In this document: positions 6,065 through 58,199 of the stretch, piece by piece | Layout: every line of letters starts with the position of its first letter | How positions within the stretch are numbered: position 1 is the stretch's first letter | Assembly (NCBI RefSeq): GCF_964213995.1 | Contig: NC_135830.1 | Coordinates: 9,734,001-9,798,000, forward strand | Origin: Mustelus asterias | Lineage: Eukaryota | Length of the DNA stretch: 64,000 nt | Reading direction: 5' to 3' | Notes under the pieces: model-generated | Databases searched by the model: none | Told to the model about the DNA's origin: nothing | The model's input: the letters and a program-made list of their open reading frames with translations, nothing else | Translations under genes and position numbers: made by a program

Positions 6065-6560
6065 CCCTGGGAGGGGGCGGGGCTGACCTGGAATTCCAGG
6101 CTCACGCTGCGCATGCGCACTACTTCTCATTGCCCATAATAAAGATGGCGGCCGCGCATGCGCTATGTTGTATCCCCTCCGTTTCAAGATGGCGGCCGTT
6201 ACCCTTGAACCGCGAACGCGGCCCGCTGCCTGCAAACGCGGGACCGGGAGCTTTCTATTCGGGATTCGGAGCCTCTATCATATACTTCTGAAGCTTCCAA
6301 CCCACACACCGGCTCTATCGCACCCCGCTTACCCGGCGATTTCTAAATTTGAGTTGCTCCGAATTGCAACGCAACAACCACTTCCTGTATCCGGACTGCG
6401 CATGCTCCACATCACAATGCCCAGGCAGTGATTGATGGCAGCTCCGGCCCAATAGGAAGAGGGGGCGGGGCTGGAGGACCGAGCGGGAGCGGCTGGTCCT
6501 CCAACCAATCGGAGTGAACGAGGGGCGGGGCTGAGCCCGGATCTCCCTCATTGGCTGAAA
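6065..6560 (-). promoter_or_regulatory. CpG-rich promoter/first exon, probably of the ZNF at 1183-2268
   Basis: NRF1 TGCGCATGCGCA (~6108), two YY1 AAGATGGCGG (~6142, ~6186), GC boxes GGGGCGGGGC, CCAAT boxes; candidate donor GTAAG at ~6332. Confidence 0.7.
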
Positions 6561-6849
6561 CTCTGCATCATTGTGAAAGTTACCGGCATCTCCACATCAT
6601 GTCCCCCTTCTCCAATCAGCTTGGCTCATGTAGATCAGGCCCAGGACAGGGTGGTTTGGTCGCTCGCCCTGTCCTGTCAGCCTGGATCTGAAGTGTCTCA
6701 ACTTGTTGAGACTCTGAATTGGATTTGATTTGATTGAATTGGAAAAGTATAAAAAAAAAGTCCAGGAGAAAACTGGACCTTTCTGTTTGTGGTTTCAAAC
6801 AGATGGAGCCCTGTGGGTGTAGGGACAAACACATCAACATTTGTCACTG

Positions 6850-6941: not shown

Positions 6942-7024
6942 GAAGAACAAAACATTTTGTTACTGAAATGTGGGAACATGAGGGAAAAAAACACAACTAA
7001 TTCAAGGGCTGATTTAAAGTAACA

Positions 7025-7222
7025 ACGTACCTTTAAGACTTGATTACCTGTAAAGCCTCGCATTCCAACCATCATTTTGTAAATTGAGTTTGTGTCTTTA
7101 TATGCCCTGTTTGTGAACACAACTCCCACTCACCTGACGAAGGAGCAGACCTCCGAAAGCTTGTGTGGCTTTTGCTACCAAATAAACCTGTTGGACTTTA
7201 ACCTGGTGTTGTGAGACTTCCT
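7025..7222 (+). mobile_element. Penelope-like terminal repeat (family 1)
   Basis: Near-identical to 41230-41425 and to the repeat following the GIY-YIG fragment at 57.7 kb. Confidence 0.75.
7131..7165 (+). ncRNA. Minimal type I hammerhead ribozyme motif
   Basis: CAC CTGACGA A GGAG-CAGAC-CTCC GAA AGCT T GTG: conserved core, stem II, palindromic stem III, stem I CAC/GTG. Confidence 0.7.
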
Positions 7223-7302
7223 AAAGTAACAGCAGACAGGGAATCTCATCATTAGAACAAGGACTGATTTCAGCAATTGAACTGCAAGAAGGGTTAAGAA
7301 AA

Positions 7303-20753: not shown

Positions 20754-21751
20754 AACAATAGGGCACGTTCACAACCGCAGGGGCACCTGGGAATTAACAG
20801 CGCCATTGTCAATCAAAGACATAATAGAAAATTATCTTGTGCAATTGAGATCAATTAATTTTTTAAAATACATTCCTCTGAATTTGTGCACTGCCATTCT
20901 CTATTTCTAAAATTGATTTAAACCAGTGCTCTCCTGTGGGAACACCCCGAGTTTTTAAAACATTTCTCACTGGTTTCCCCCCTCCCCCCGCTCTCCTGAA
21001 GGTGCTCATACTGATTGGGTAAATCCCCCAGAAACTGGTTTATTTCACTTTCTTTCTCCTGAGACTGAATATTCTGTTTTATGCAATGATACATCACAGA
21101 TGGAAACCATTTGGCTCACGTTTCCATGCTGTAAACCTCTGTGACTCTATCCTGCCCAGCCGGGCTCTCTTTAAGATCGATCCAATTAATTCCACAGCCC
21201 TGCTGGCAGAGTCAGAACAATGTATATTTACTGCAGCAATGCAGGAGGTAAATAGAGAATGTTTTTCGTTGTATACTTCTCAGACACACTCACCCCTGGA
21301 AAGATCAATCGGCCGGTGTACCAAGCAAATATTAAGGTTCCACTTAAAATTAAAACAGAAGGTGCAGAAAAAAAGCAGCAGTTACCAGGGCCGAGTTTAT
21401 GGCCAAAATGATGGTGCTGAGCTGCCTTTAGAAAATAACCAGCAATCCAACAAGTCACTCACAATATTGAATCAAACAAAATTGATCAAAGATTCAGATA
21501 AAGTATTCTGTTTTCCAACATGATGCTGTGATATTTTGTGATGGTTTCAATGTTCTCAAAACTACTTGGTGTAGTCCTGGTTTATTTTATACTCACTCCC
21601 ACCCATCGCTGTCCATGAAGCACATTACCCCCACTCTGATTCTCCATCCCATCAGAGACAACTCAGTCACTGACTGGAAATTAGGGCTTTTAATGAGAGC
21701 TCTGACAACTGAGAATGCACCGTAGGCAGAATCAACCCGAGCTAACAAACC

Positions 21752-24700
21752 CCAGACAGTGAACATTATCTCCCAGACCCGAATATAAAACAGTGAACAT
21801 TATCCCCCCCAGACCCAAATATAAAACAGTGAACATTATCCTCCCCAGACCCGAATATAAAACAGTGAACATTATCCCCCCCAGACCTGAATATAAAACA
21901 GTGAACATTATCCCCCCGAGACCCAAATATAAAACAGTGAACATTATCCCCCCGAGACCCAAATATAAAACAGTGAACATTCTCCCCCGCAAACCCGAAT
22001 ATAAAACAGTGAACATTATCCCCCCCAGACCCGAATATAAAACAGTGAACATTATCCCCCCCAGACCTGAATATAAAACAGTGAACATTATCCCCCCGAG
22101 ACCCAAATATAAAACAGTGAACATTATCCCCCCCAGACCTGAATATAAAACAGTGAACATTCTCCCCCCAGACCTGAATATAAAACAGTGAACATTATCC
22201 CCCCCCAGACCCGAATATAAAAGTGAACATTATCCCCCCCCCAGACCCGAATATAAAACAGTGAACATTATCCCCCCCCAGACCCGAATATAAAAGTGAA
22301 CATTATCCCCCCCCCAGACCCGAATATAAAACAGTGAACATTATCCCCCCCAGACCCGAATATAAAACAGTGAATCTTATCCCCCCAGACCCGAATATAA
22401 AACAGCGAACATTATCCCCCAGACCCGAATATAAAACAGTGAACATTATCCCCCAGACCTGAATATAAAACAGTGAACATTATCCCCCCCCAGACCCGAA
22501 TATAAAACAGTGAACATTATCCCCCCCAGACCCGAATATAAAACAGTGAACATTATCCCCCAGACCCGAATATAAAACAGTGAACATTATCCCCCAGACC
22601 CGAATATAAAACAGTGAACATTATCCCCCCCAGACCCGAATATAAAACAGTGAACATTATCCCCCAGACCCAAATATAAAACAGTGAACATTATCCCCCC
22701 CAGACCCGAATATAAAACAGTGAACATTATCCCCCCCAGACCTGAATATAAAACAGTGAACATTCTCCCCCCAGACCTGAATATAAAACAGTGAACATTA
22801 TCCCCCCCCAGACCCGAATATAAAAGTGAACATTATCCCCCCCCCAGACCCGAATATAAAACAGTGAACATTATCCCCCCCAGACCCGAATATAAAACAG
22901 TGAACATTATCCCCCAGACCCAAATATAAAACAGTGAACATTATCCCCCCCAGACCCGAATATAAAACAGTGAACATTATCCCCCCCCCAGACCCGAATA
23001 TAAAACAGTGAACATTATCCCCCAGACCCAAATATAAAACAGTGAACATTATCCCCCAGACCCGAATATAAAACAGTGAACATTCTCCCCCCCGGTCCCG
23101 AATATAAAACAGTGAACATTATCCCCCCCAGACCCGAATATAAAACAGTGAACATTATCCCCCCCAGACCCGAATATAAAACAGTGAACATTATCCCCCC
23201 CCAGACCCAAATATAAAACAGAAAACATTATCCCCCAGACCCGAATATAAAACAGTGAAGATTATCCCCCCCAGACCCGAATATAAAACAGTGAACATTA
23301 TCCCCCCAGACCCGAATATAAAACAGCGAACATTATCCCCCAGACCCGAATATAAAACAGTGAACATTATCCCCCAGACCCGAATATAAAACAGTGAACA
23401 TTATCCCCCCCCAGACCCGAATATAAAACAGTGAACATTATCCCCCCCAGACCCGAATATAAAACAGTGAACATTCTCCCCCCAGACCTGAATATAAAAC
23501 AGTGAACATTATCCCCCCCCAGACCCGAATATAAAAGTGAACATTATCCCACCCCCAGACCCGAATATAAAACAGTGAACATTATCCCCCAGACCCAAAT
23601 ATAAAACAGTGAACATTATCCCCCCCCAGACCCGAATATAAAACAGTGAACATTATCCCCCCAGACCCGAATATAAAACAGTGAACATTATCCCCCCCCA
23701 GACCCGAATATAAAACAGTGAACATTATCCCCCCAGACCCGAATATAAAACAGTGAACATTATCCCCCAGACCTGAATATAAAACAGTGAACATTATCCC
23801 CCCCAGACCCGAATATAAAACAGTGAACATTATCCCCCCCCAGACCCAAATATAAAACAGTGAACATTATCCCCCCCCAGACCCAAATATAAAACAGTGA
23901 ACATTATCCCCCCCCAGACCCAAATATAAAACAGTGAACATTATCCCCCAGACCCGAATATAAAACAGTGAACATTATCCCCCAGACCCAAATATAAAAC
24001 AGTGAACATTATCCCCCAGACCCGAATATAAAACAGTGAACATTCTCCCCCCCAGACCCGAATATAAAACAGTGAACATTATCCCCCCCAGACCCGAATA
24101 TAAAACAGTGAACATTATCCCCCCCAGACCCAAATATAAAACAGTAAACATTATCCCCCAGACCCGAATATTAAACAGTGAAGATTATTGACCCAGACCC
24201 GAATATAAAACAGTGAACATTATCCCCCCCAGACCCGAATATAAAACAGTGAAGATTATTGACCCAGACCTGAAGAGAAAAGAGTGAACATTATCCCCCA
24301 GACCCGAATATAAAACAGTGAACATTATCCCCCAGACCCGAATATAAAACAGTGAAGATTATTGACCCAGACCCGAATATAAAACAGTGAACATTATCCC
24401 CCCCCCCAGACCCGAATATAAAACAGTGAACATTATCCCCCCCAGACCCAAATATAAAACAGTGAACATTATCCCCCAGACCCGAATATAAAACAGTGAA
24501 GATTATCCCCCCCAGACCCGAATATAAAACAGTGAACATTATCCCCCCAGACCCGAATATAAAACAGCGAACATTATCCCCCAGACCCGAATATAAAACA
24601 GTGAACATTATCCCCCAGACCCGAATATAAAACAGTGAACATTATCCCCCCCCAGACCCGAATATAAAACAGTGAACATTATCCCCCCCAGACCCGAATA

Positions 24701-25957
24701 TAAAACAGTGAACATTCTCCCCCCAGACCTGAATATAAAACAGTGAACATTATCCCCCCCCAGACCCGAATATAAAACAGTGAACATTATCCCACCCCCA
24801 GACCCGAATATAAAACAGTGAACATTATCCCCCAGACCCAAATATAAAACAGTGAACATTATCCCCCCCCAGACCCGAATATAAAACAGTGAACATTATC
24901 CCCCCAGACCCGAATATAAAACAGTGAACATTATCCCCCCCCAGACCCGAATATAAAACAGTGAACATTATCCCCCAGACCCGAATATAAAACAGTGAAC
25001 ATTATCCCCCCAGACCCGAATATAAAACAGTGAACATTATCCCCCCCAGACCCGAATATAAAACAGTGAACATTATCCCCCCCAGACCCGAATATAAAAC
25101 AGTGAACATTATCCCCCAGACCCAAATATAAAACAGTAAACATTATCCCCCAGACCCGAATATAAAACAGTGAACATTATCCCCCAGACCCAAATATAAA
25201 ACAGTGAACATTATCCCCCAGACCCGAATATAAAACAGTGAACTTTCTCCCCCCCAGACCCGAATATAAAACAGTGAACATTATCCCCCCCAGACCCGAA
25301 TATAAAACAGTGAACATTATCCCCCCCAGACCCAAATATAAAACAGTAAACATTATCCCCCAGACCCGAATATAAAACAGTGAAGATTATTGACCCAGAC
25401 CCGAATATAAAACAGTGAACATTATCCCCCCCAGACCCGAATATAAAACAGTGAAGATTATTGACCCAGACCTGAAGAGAAAAGAGTGAACATTATCCCC
25501 CAGACCCGAATATAAAACAGTGAACATTATCCCCCAGACCCGAATATAAAACAGTGAAGATTATTGACCCAGACCCGAATATAAAACAGTGAACATTATC
25601 CCCCCCCCCCAGACCCGAATATAAAACAGTGAACATTATCCCCCCCCAGACCCGAATATAAAACAGTGAACATTATCCCCCAGACCCAAATATAAAACAG
25701 TGAACATTATCCCCAAGACCCGAGTATAAAACAGTGAACATTATCCCCCCCAGACCCGAATATAAAACAGTGAACATTATCCACCCCAGACCCGAATATG
25801 AAACAGTGAACATTATCCCCCAGACCCGAATATAAAACAGTGAACATTATCCCCCCCCAGATTTGAATATAAAATGGTGAACATTATCCCCCAGACCCGA
25901 ATATAAAACAGTGAACATTATCCCCCCCAGATTTGAATATAAAATGGTGAACATTAC
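21752..25957. repeat. ~4.2-kb minisatellite, unit ~34-40 bp (ACAGTGAACATTAT-Cn-AGACCCGAATATAAA)
   Basis: Over 100 head-to-tail units differing mostly in poly-C length; no unique spacers. Confidence 0.97.
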
Positions 25958-35859: not shown

Positions 35860-36140
35860 GGGCAGCACGGTGGCTGGGCAGCACGGCGGCAGAGTGGTTA
35901 GCACTGCTGCTTCACAGCGCCGGGTTCAATTCCCGGCTTGAGTCACTGTGTGGAGTTTGCACGTTCTCCCCATGTCTGCGTGGGTTTTTCCGGGTGCTCC
36001 GGTTTCCTCCCACATTCTGAAAGACGTGCTAGTTAGATGCATTGACCCAAACAGGCGCCGGACTGTGGCGACACGGGGAATTTCACATAACTTCATTGCA
36101 GTGTTAATGTAAGCCTTACTTGTGACTAATAAACTTTACT
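35860..36140 (+). mobile_element. HE1-like SINE (alternative tail)
   Basis: GGGCAGCACGG head (locally duplicated), TGGTTAGCACTGC, tail CTTGTGACTAATAAAC. Confidence 0.8.
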
Positions 36141-40640: not shown

Positions 40641-41229
40641 GGTGCTGGTGTCCTTGTGCTTCTCCAAGTTGGATGATCAGTTAAAGCCTGGTCCACACAC
40701 ACAACATACATATAGTTTCACCCTGCTGTGAAAAGTGTTATGTTTCTTCAGGCTGTGTAACTGGTTAAAGATCTTTCCACAGTCAGTTCGCTGGAACACT
40801 CTCACTTGGGTGTGTGTTTGTCCCGATGCTTTTCCAGTCACACTGATGTTAAATTTCTTTGCCCACAGGCAGAACAGACAAATATTTCTCCTTCCACATT
40901 CAAAGGCCGATGATATTCAGCTCCTAAGGAACTGAATGACTTTGTCAGATGTGATGTCCGGTTTGAGTTTTCCGACTGCCGTTCCTTCACTTCGAATATC
41001 CTGTAAAAAAGTTTAGAAAAGTCATCACTGTCAGAACTGGATAAAAATTCTGAACAATTCCAGTTTCTCTGGAACATTTTTTCCTCTCTTGTTCCCCCAA
41101 ATCTGTAAATCCCCGTCCCACACACTCTCCCTCCTCCCTGGGCTGAAATCCAAACCCATCTCCACCATTTCTTTCCTCCACTCCCAGTTTTCTCCCACCC
41201 TCTCCTCTGTCTGGGTTCAGTTCATGATG

Positions 41230-41425
41230 TGGTTTTAAGACTTGATGAGCTGTAAGTATTCGCATTCCAACCATTATTCTGTAAATTGAGTTTGTGTCTT
41301 TATATGCCCTGTTTGTGAACAGAATTCCCACTCACCTGATGAAGGAGCAGCGCTCCGAAAGCTTGTGGCTTTTGCGACCAAATAAACCTGTTGTACTTTA
41401 ACCTGGTGTTGTTAAACTTCTTACT
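41230..41425 (+). mobile_element. Penelope-like terminal repeat (family 1) in ZNF intron
   Basis: Matches 7025-7222; flanked by GGGTTCAGTTC on both sides (possible target duplication). Confidence 0.75.
41333..41367 (+). ncRNA. Minimal hammerhead ribozyme motif
   Basis: CAC CTGATGA A GGAGC-AGC-GCTCC GAA AGCT T GTG. Confidence 0.75.
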
Positions 41426-41479
41426 GGGTTCAGTTCTCCAGCTCCTGTCTGCAGACTGACAATAAAACCAATGGGTCTT

Positions 41480-49405: not shown

Positions 49406-50843
49406 TAGAACATAGAACATAGAACATTACAGCGCAGAACAGGCCCTTCGGCCCACGATGTTGCACCGACCAGTTAAAAAAAAACTGTGACCCTCCAACC
49501 TAAACCAATTTCTTTTCGTCCATGAACCTATCTACGGATCTCTTAAACGCCCCCAAACTAGGCGCATTTACTACTGATGCTGGCAGGGCATTCCAATCCC
49601 TCACCACCCTCTGGGTAAAGAACCTACCCCTGACATCGGTTCTATAACTACCCCCCCTCAATTTAAAGCCATGCCCCCTCGTGCTGGATTTCTCCATCAG
49701 AGGAAAAAGGCTATCACTATCCACCCTATCTAAACCTCTAATCATCTTATATGTTTCAATAAGATCCCCTCTTAGCCGCCGCCTTTCCAGCGAAAACAAT
49801 CCCAAATCCCTCAGCCTCTCCTCATAGGATCTCCCCTCCATACCAGGCAACATCCTGGTAAACCTCCTCTGCACCCTCTCCAAAGCCTCCACATCCTTCC
49901 TGTAATGTGGGGACCAGAACTGCACACAGTACTCCAAGTGCGGCCGCACCAGAGTTGTGTACAGTTGCAACATAACGCTACGACTCCTAAATTCAATCCC
50001 CCTACCAATAAACGCCAAGACACCATATGCCTTCTTAACAACCTTATCTACTTGATTCCCAACTTTCAGGGATCTATGCACACATACACCTAGATCCCTC
50101 TGCTCCTCCACACTATTCAAAGTCCTCCCGTTAGCCCTATACTCAACACATCTGTTATTCCTACCAAAGTGAATTACCTCACACTTCTCCGCATTAAACT
50201 CCATCCGCCACCTCTCGGCCCAACTTTGCAACCTGTCTAAGTCTTCCTGCAAACTACGACACCCTTCCTCACTGTCTACCACACCACCGACTTTGGTGTC
50301 ATCAGCAAATTTGCTAATCCACCCAACTATACCCTCATCCAGATCATTAATAAATATTACAAACAGCAGTGGCCCCAAAACAGATCCCTGAGGTACACCA
50401 CTTGTAACCGCACTCCATGATGAATATTTACTATCAACCACCACCCTCTGTTTCCTATCCGCTAGCCAATTCCTGATCCAATTTCCTAGATCACCCCCAA
50501 TCCCATACATCTGCATTTTCTGCAGAAGCCTACCATGGTGAACCTTATCAAACGCCTTACTAAAATCCATATATACCACGTCCACTGCCTTGCCCCCATC
50601 CACCTCCTTGGTCACTTTCTCAAAAAACTCAATAAGGTTAGTAAGGCACGACCTACCTGCCACAAAACCATGCTGACTATCACCTATCAATTCATTACTC
50701 TCCAAATAACTATAAATCCTATCCCTTATAATTTTTTCCAACATCTTGCCGACAACAGAAGTGAGACTCACCGGTCTATAATTCCCGGGGAAGTCTCTGT
50801 TCCCCTTCTTAAACAATGGGACAACATTCGCTAACCTCCAATC
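49406..50843 (-). mobile_element. 5'-truncated CR1 LINE, different subfamily (uninterrupted RT)
   Basis: ORF 49500..50816 NYRPVSLTS..DFSKAFDKV..FADD; (TTCTATG)n tail at 49406. Confidence 0.93.
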
Positions 50844-57659: not shown

Positions 57660-58050
57660 CAGCAAGAAGTCTCACAACACCAGGTTAAAGTCCAACAGGT
57701 TTATTTGGTAGCACAAGCCACAAGCTTTCGGAACAGGCTGTTCCTTCATCAGGTGAGTGGGAGTTCGGTTCACAAACAGGGCAAAAGAAAACACAAACTC
57801 AATTTACAAAATAATGGTTGGAATGCGAGACCAGGCAAGTCGTGGGGGTTACAGATAGTGTGATATGAACCCAAGATCCCAGTTGAGGCTGTCCTCATGT
57901 GTGCGGAACTTGGCTATCAGTCTCTGCTCAGCGACTCTGCGCTGTCGTGTGTCGCGAAGGCCGCCTTGGAGAACGCTTACCCGAAGATCAGAGGCCGAAC
58001 GCCCGTGACTGCCTAAGTGTTCCCCAACAGGAAGAGAACACTCTTGCCTG
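57660..58050 (-). mobile_element. 5'-truncated Penelope-like element: GIY-YIG C-terminus followed by terminal repeat with hammerhead
   Basis: PVGEHLGSHGRSASDLRVSVLQG..RRVAEQRLIAKFRTHEDSLN then family 1 repeat. Confidence 0.85.
57719..57755 (-). ncRNA. Minimal hammerhead ribozyme motif
   Basis: CAC CTGATGA A GGAACA-GCC-TGTTCC GAA AGCT T GTG on minus strand. Confidence 0.78.
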
Positions 58051-58199
58051 GTGAGGCACAGGAATCCCAGCGAGAGCAGCATTCAACAAGCCCCAGCCGA
58101 GACAAAAAGTTCTTACACAAGTCACGAACCCAAGCACTTGAAACAGAAACTTCACGCCGACCAAGGCGTTCCTCCCAGCGGCCACATTTCCAAAAGCTC

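Follow-up and report, generated by a model that had tools for sequence, protein, structure and literature searches.

The window, a stretch of 64,000 nucleotides of the Mustelus asterias genome (contig NC_135830.1), contains ZNF genes and three copies of a small hammerhead motif, which sit in the 5′-truncated pseudo-LTR ends of a Penelope-like element (PLE) of the Neptune/Nematis type. The structure of the ZNF genes was inferred from ZNF frames, shared acceptors, and paralogous promoter blocks. Copy 1 lies approximately 450 bp upstream of a promoter-like block (6395-6579), from which it faces away, at a minus-strand ZNF gene (1.2-6.5 kb). Copy 2 is antisense in an inferred intron of a minus-strand ZNF gene (39.5-42 kb, acceptor at approximately 41000), and copy 3 is antisense, 2.5 kb downstream of a plus-strand ZNF exon. 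The features of the three copies are as follows.

7027..7222, plus strand: pseudo-LTR stub of copy 1, with 10-bp target-site duplications at 7015-7024 and 7222-7231
7131..7165, plus strand: minimal hammerhead of copy 1, stem II decayed to 4 bp
Between 7162 and 7163, plus strand: predicted cut of copy 1
41224..41426, plus strand: pseudo-LTR stub of copy 2, with 9 nt of inverted tail at its 5′ end
41333..41367, plus strand: minimal hammerhead of copy 2, with the 5-bp stem II GGAGC/GCTCC
Between 41364 and 41365, plus strand: predicted cut of copy 2
57660..58054, minus strand: 5′-truncated Penelope-like insertion of copy 3, consisting of an ORF end and the pseudo-LTR
57849..58049, minus strand: final 66 codons and stop of the RT + GIY-YIG ORF, 52/65 identical to the C-terminus of L192:1569-2846
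57719..57755, minus strand: minimal type-I hammerhead of copy 3, with stem I CAC/GTG, core CTGATGA and an extra A, 6-bp stem II (57744-57730), GAA, the palindrome AGCT, and U as H17 (57722)
Between 57722 and 57721, minus strand: predicted cut of copy 3

A sequence-only reading of this DNA had placed three minimal PLE hammerheads at 7131-7165 (+), 41333-41367 (+), and 57755-57719 (−), and both positions and identity held. The order CAC-CTGAYGA-A-stem II-GAA-AGCT-T-GTG is common to all copies. The core CUGANGA ... GAAA ... UH in type-I order and the palindromic AGCT without a stable helix III were each present in three of three, and the anatomy fits all four traits given for metazoan minimal hammerheads in PMC4209133. 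A type-I hammerhead descriptor matched exactly these three sites in the 64-kb window and no other, while 200 dinucleotide shuffles of the window averaged 0.19 loose matches and 0 strict ones. The heptamer CTGANGA by itself was not enriched in the window (57 vs. 50.8 expected). Approximately 170 bp are common to the three copies at 90% identity, and the letters are consistent with the predicted cut after CUU. An Rfam scan of the window found no hammerhead family at E ≤ 1, which is no evidence against hammerheads because these are minimal motifs without helix III.

The three copies differ in stem II. In copy 1 it has only four pairs, with a C.C mismatch, and a pair probability of 0.27 by folding, and in copy 3 its pair probability is 0.98 (stem I, 0.06). 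The change described earlier at 57.7 kb, from G-C to A-U, is indeed a paired exchange, but more than one pair differs: the stem-loop is 15 nt long and has also a 2-nt insertion and a sixth pair, giving GGAACA/TGTTCC with the loop GCC.

The ORF end next to copy 3 proved to be real (80% identity), but the motif does not follow it directly, as had been stated: the stop lies 93 nt ahead, and is as near as this only because 116 nt of the pseudo-LTR have been deleted. This internal deletion, at approximately 57830, has 4-nt microhomology at its ends. A spliced intron was considered for it and rejected on account of the microhomology and the lack of GT..AG. A Pfam search with the 66-aa ORF remnant matched no family, and the remnant was identified through the family loci.

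The stub of copy 2 is flanked by 13-bp target-site duplications (41211-41223 and 41424-41436), and the empty site of this insertion is present in a paralogous ZNF unit at 28.1-28.3 kb of the window. Read on the minus strand, positions 41418-41426, the 3′ end of the element inside the inferred ZNF intron, give GTAAGAAGT, which we take to be close to the splice-donor consensus; antisense copies might supply splice donors. At 6584-6602, 18-19 nt match the end of the element tail, at the edge of a stretch of approximately 200 bp that is absent from the paralogous 42 kb promoter block.

In the window and in the family loci the motif is located 3′ of the stop of the RT + GIY-YIG ORF. The family ORF comprises RT, a C-x4-C-x2-C linker (found in L008, L012, L013, L017, L048, L058, and L059), and GIY-YIG, whose GIY and YIG boxes have two cysteines between them. 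In Pfam searches the frame of L192 matched RVT_1 (E 1.5e-6) and GIY-YIG (E 3.9e-4), both just below the curated cut-off, and the frame of L193 matched RVT_1 with 41.1 bits. A C-terminal GIY-YIG with CCHH and a CX2-5CxxC linker are marks of Neptune/Nematis EN+ PLEs (PMC8557442). The element shares these with them, and its copies show the same 5′ truncation, inverted 5′ copy, tail, and target-site duplication (PMC8557442, PMC3846280). Judged by its motifs, the element appears to be of the Neptune/Nematis type. A full-length element was sought in four stretches and not found; the longest open frames were of 426 and 502 aa, and two of the four stretches carried a nested Gypsy-type element. L194 and L195 (G000:C1:39.04 and 39.48 Mb) are near-identical inverted pairs of the A-U branch described below, enclosing a Gypsy-type LTR retrotransposon, and are probably one duplicated locus.

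The window holds other repeats. A weak Rfam match to mascRNA-menRNA at 35892-35944 (31.7 bits, below the cut-off of 42.5) is likely the tRNA-derived head of a SINE, and a long tandem minisatellite array at 21700-25500 gives rise to repetitive open frames. CR1-like LINE copies with long open frames are found at 49500-50843 and at L196:4108-6975. In the latter, an EN-RT frame of 956 aa runs unbroken and is almost identical to the window copy, which suggests, from the letters, recent activity of this LINE.

In the 3.68-Gb genome the motif pattern gave 113,711 matches, and the reversed control gave 0. Many matches form divergent pairs, which correspond to the known inverted 5′ copy of PLEs (PMC8557442, PMC3846280). 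Covariation was assessed in 287 distinct copies anchored on the 3′ flank, a sample in which the A-U branch and truncations are overrepresented owing to the search design. The motif could be parsed in 181 of them, the other 106 being truncated or too diverged. Among the parsed copies, 132 had an intact core and 179 the extra A between positions 9 and 10.1. The pair G10.1-C11.1 was GC in 166 and GT in 13, the stem I pair 2.1:1.1 was CG in 143 and TA in 25, and in stem II pair 4 was GC in 101 and AT in 73, and pair 6 AT in 86 and TA in 15. N7 was C, T, or A, and H17 was A in 128 copies, T in 39, C in 12, and G in 2.

In 16 hand-picked copies, 97.8% of the cells were paired, as compared to 31-48% in slid controls, and three of nine pairs showed a two-sided change. 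None of 500 shuffles reached this pairing score and 153 of 500 reached the count of two-sided pairs, in a test in which kinship alone can beat the shuffles. The three compensatory pairs correspond to about three events in related lineages. The claim that structure is conserved across subfamilies was borne out, with C-G/U-A in stem I and both G-C/A-U and U-A/A-U in stem II covarying; source elements have maintained the structure (about three events), and inserted copies have not. The A-U stem form occurs in approximately 1,586 copies genome-wide, mostly as one 15-nt haplotype with its own flanking marks. The A.C half-change is found in 1,096 copies (about 1%), scattered over backgrounds, a frequency that neutral decay would be expected to give. 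The A-U haplotype is a single event (a perfect 7-bp inverted repeat) and alone no sign of selection. A further subfamily at L197:1711-1760, 8 kb to the left of the window, has a longer, different stem I (up to 6-7 pairs), a different loop II, and a mismatch at 2.1:1.1.

The history of the 57.7-kb stem could be followed, since the insertion of copy 3 has been duplicated together with its flank. At least 14 places share the insertion site and the 116-nt deletion, a lower bound, as 40 of 3,414 candidates were scored. The A-U stem is present in three of the 14 duplicates, which are 99% alike and include the window copy, and the remaining 11 of 11 have a 13-nt stem with GGAGC as its 5′ arm and no A-U stem. 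The difference amounts to one short feature.

57733..57741, minus strand: minimal A-U patch, with A at 57741, inserted CT at 57736-57735, and T at 57733

Outside the patch the window copy matches the duplicates at 57756, 57769, 57809, 57817, and 57826, at the ORF end, and at 57714 and 57673. The nearest unswapped marks, 57756 and 57714, set the patch tract at 9-41 nt. A tree of the flanks nests the window copy among the duplicates (supports of 0.53 and 0.74 inside, and 1.0 for the split from L070-L074); it was rooted on the side of L070-L074 because these loci keep the ancestral letters of the family. Given the duplicates without an A-U stem and the nested window copy, we therefore conclude that the A-U stem was gained after insertion. 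The sequence-only reading needs correction here, as the 57.7-kb copy did not inherit the change from its subfamily.

By hand estimate, the patch is very unlikely to have arisen by three separate point events, given a branch length of 0.02 changes per site. It probably reached the 57.7-kb copy by short ectopic gene conversion from the A-U lineage. Among 30 loci examined of 43 with the same 5′ letter, most were regular members of the A-U branch. A second mosaic confined to the stem was found in L121; L144 and L150 are similar on fewer marks, and L131, L136, and L145 show a subfamily switch on one side only. No report of such a stem patch exchange was found in a literature search. A possible though doubtful alternative is that the stem arose in place by hairpin (template-switch) correction, with no conversion from the A-U subfamily involved. 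That subfamily could then have been founded by the same one-step process, so that the pair needed no selection. In favor of this, the new stem forms a perfect inverted repeat of 7 bp centered on a single base, the change is limited to the stem, and the 1,096 copies with the A.C half-change would be the substrate. However, the product is letter-identical to the commonest haplotype of 1,586 possible donors, the one-sided mosaics L131, L136, and L145 show exchange between subfamilies, and a simple switch of strands at the central GC, worked out by hand, yields a palindrome of 14 or 16 nt, not 15 nt. Copy 2 (41233-41426) carries, on either side of a GGAGC stem, flanking marks of the GGGGCT-stem branch (GAATTCCC, GTTAAAC), and may be another mosaic or an intermediate branch.

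When the monomers were folded, the hammerhead fold was minor, with a stem I probability of 0.01-0.11 in the three copies, and the AGCU/AGCU helix was worth only −2.5 kcal/mol. In the main branches a competing hairpin, AAAGC/GCUUU, can form across the cut site (41352-41375 in the window) and hides A13-A15.1 and H17, with a probability of 0.67 in copy 2 and 0.01 in copy 3. According to the folding model, this hairpin could be an off state.

In one branch, of which 42,808 copies are exact and intact, a copy was counted as starting at the predicted cut (+1) if six upstream bases mismatched. There were 428 such copies vs. 77 at −4, one of the two control offsets (−4 and +7); the filters pass 0.17 (+1) and 0.18 (−4) of random flanks. 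By hand count, the first 100 starts at +1 consist of 41 with one and the same fold-back junction with a shared G and 59 with varied junctions. The 77 matches at −4 were likewise divided by hand into 54 that end in GTG, where a short part of the sequence following the cut has been duplicated, 6 deletions, and 17 true starts. Varied-junction starts thus number approximately 250 of 428 at +1 vs. 17 at −4 (hand counts). The +7 control, for which a stricter filter (0.08) was used and two branches were pooled, gave 96 matches, of which 56 (33 + 23) are mirror arms with a partner starting at the predicted +1. In one young branch, a few percent of the copies have their first base exactly at the predicted cut.

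We lean slightly towards reading the +1 excess as a fossil record of PLE hammerhead cutting in living germ-line cells, with stems patch-exchanged after insertion. A literature search for a published genomic footprint at a PLE hammerhead cut found none. In the anole element, which is the only in vitro system published, the hammerhead cleaved only with protein and was dispensable for insertion in vitro, and PMC11167929 reports no RNA-seq reads ending at the cut; dimers of minimal hammerheads cleaved weakly in PMC4209133. It is also conceivable, though in our view unlikely, that the motif has a conserved structural or promoter-linked role without cutting in cells and that the +1 excess marks a transcription start or a favored fold-back point. 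The single fold-back junction seen in 41 of the first 100 starts at +1, also in the loci, the location of PLE promoters in the pseudo-LTR (PMC6765202), and the dispensability of cleavage in vitro (PMC11167929) would agree with such a role. On the other hand, the varied junctions (59 of 100, or approximately 250 of 428, vs. 17 at −4) and the 56 of 96 mirror arms with a partner at the predicted +1 argue against it. Other positions would be expected from stalling at stem I, stem II, or the competing hairpin, there is no clear excess of a cap-like extra G at −1 (18 of 59), and N7 and H17 vary as the catalytic core allows.

Highly improbable is a co-option by the host, in which copies within ZNF introns or beside promoters would cut and regulate host transcripts, as the sequence-only reading had suggested: none of the three copies is in sense within the inferred ZNF pre-mRNA. 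In favor of co-option, the copies are located in or near ZNF units, all three have an intact core, and stem II of the 57.7-kb copy became stronger in place (pair probability 0.98). A CCAAT/GC-box-rich stretch at 58.2-58.65 kb, 150-600 bp from copy 3, might, judged by its letters, start a minus-strand transcript reading copy 3 in sense. However, such motifs need a partner or a protein to cleave (PMC4209133, PMC11167929), and a single minimal hammerhead did not cleave in PMC4209133. Copies 1 and 2 are 34 kb apart, the next plus-strand copy is 15 kb away and outside the window, and no minus-strand partner was found in the window or within 10 kb on either side. Furthermore, the core is broken in 8 of the 14 duplicates of the copy 3 insertion (three of five clades), by U16.1-to-G or G12-to-A. 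Under the inferred gene models, neither the sense orientation nor the core conserved across duplicates that would mark a domesticated host ribozyme was seen. Over 55.3-58.8 kb, four contig sets showed only repeat-driven depth.

As an overall explanation, which we consider very probable, the window holds three minimal type-I hammerheads in truncated pseudo-LTR ends of a highly abundant PLE with a Neptune/Nematis-type linker; they likely serve the RNA of the element itself and are likely idle in these copies. In active tandem elements, two motifs would pair via AGCU/AGCU, or the protein of the element would help folding, and the element RNA would then be cut after CUH (both steps drawn from PMC4209133 and PMC11167929). 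Some of the cut 3′ fragments may be reverse-transcribed to the new 5′ end and inserted, which would give the copies starting at +1. Once inserted, copies decay, losing core bases as observed here. The A-U stem was fixed in one source lineage, where it is seen as a subfamily trait, and the 57.7-kb copy took it up after its insertion, likely by short ectopic gene conversion.

An unexpected excess of the core-breaking change U16.1-to-G counts against this explanation. At this core base G is the commonest substitution: by hand count, the first 100 of 525 non-T copies had G in 67, C in 23, and A in 10. The change was seen among copies ending in ...AGTGGCTTTTG (G000) and also in L064, L065, and L069. 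The cause could be quasi-palindrome correction against the upstream CCACTC, an RT error next to a cut that was joined again, conversion, or a benefit to templates unable to cleave.

The motif itself is already well described in PLEs; the host is new, and the copy number in it is very high. The copies agree with the minimal hammerheads of metazoan PLE pseudo-LTRs in PMC4209133 in being of type I, with an extra base at 9/10.1, G10.1-C11.1, a palindromic 15.2-16.2 without a loop, a short stem I, families with compensatory changes, and an arrangement mostly as single truncated copies with opposite-strand pairs 100-700 bp apart. They differ in number, with 113,711 pattern matches here vs. approximately 9,000 in Xenopus and 4,000 in coelacanth, and the consulted sections of PMC4209133 describe neither in-place patch exchange nor copies starting at the cut. 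No shark entry was found in the text and two supplement files of that paper, and a literature search for a shark PLE hammerhead found none; figures and bioRxiv supplements may list shark motifs.

With Poseidon_Ac of the green anole (PMC11167929) the element shares a hammerhead in the pseudo-LTR, an optional tail of 30-40 nt, and possibly a need for the element's protein in cleavage. Poseidon_Ac belongs, however, to the Poseidon clade and lacks the Cys linker, and its ORF starts inside the hammerhead, which is impossible for most copies here (CTGACGA/CTGAAGA). In the data reported there, no reads began at the cut, whereas here genomic copies do. Non-LTR retrozymes (bioRxiv 10.64898/2026.07.22.740005) are likewise type-I hammerhead repeats derived from PLE pseudo-LTRs, and their survey includes one cartilaginous fish genome. 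They are defined there as tandem units with at least two hammerheads and have no ORF, whereas the window copies are single truncated ends of an autonomous element, 16-34 kb apart, and copy 3 is still joined to an ORF end.

These results bear on whether PLE hammerheads cut in cells, a question raised by PMC4209133, PMC8557442, and PMC11167929, and a family of more than 100,000 copies offers both a trace at the cut that can be counted and natural variants on which to test it. The 57.7-kb copy calls for caution in reading covariation in repeats, as its perfect compensatory change came from a post-insertion patch and not from selection on that copy. If this holds, compensatory haplotypes can appear in dead copies without selection, via stem patches acquired after insertion.
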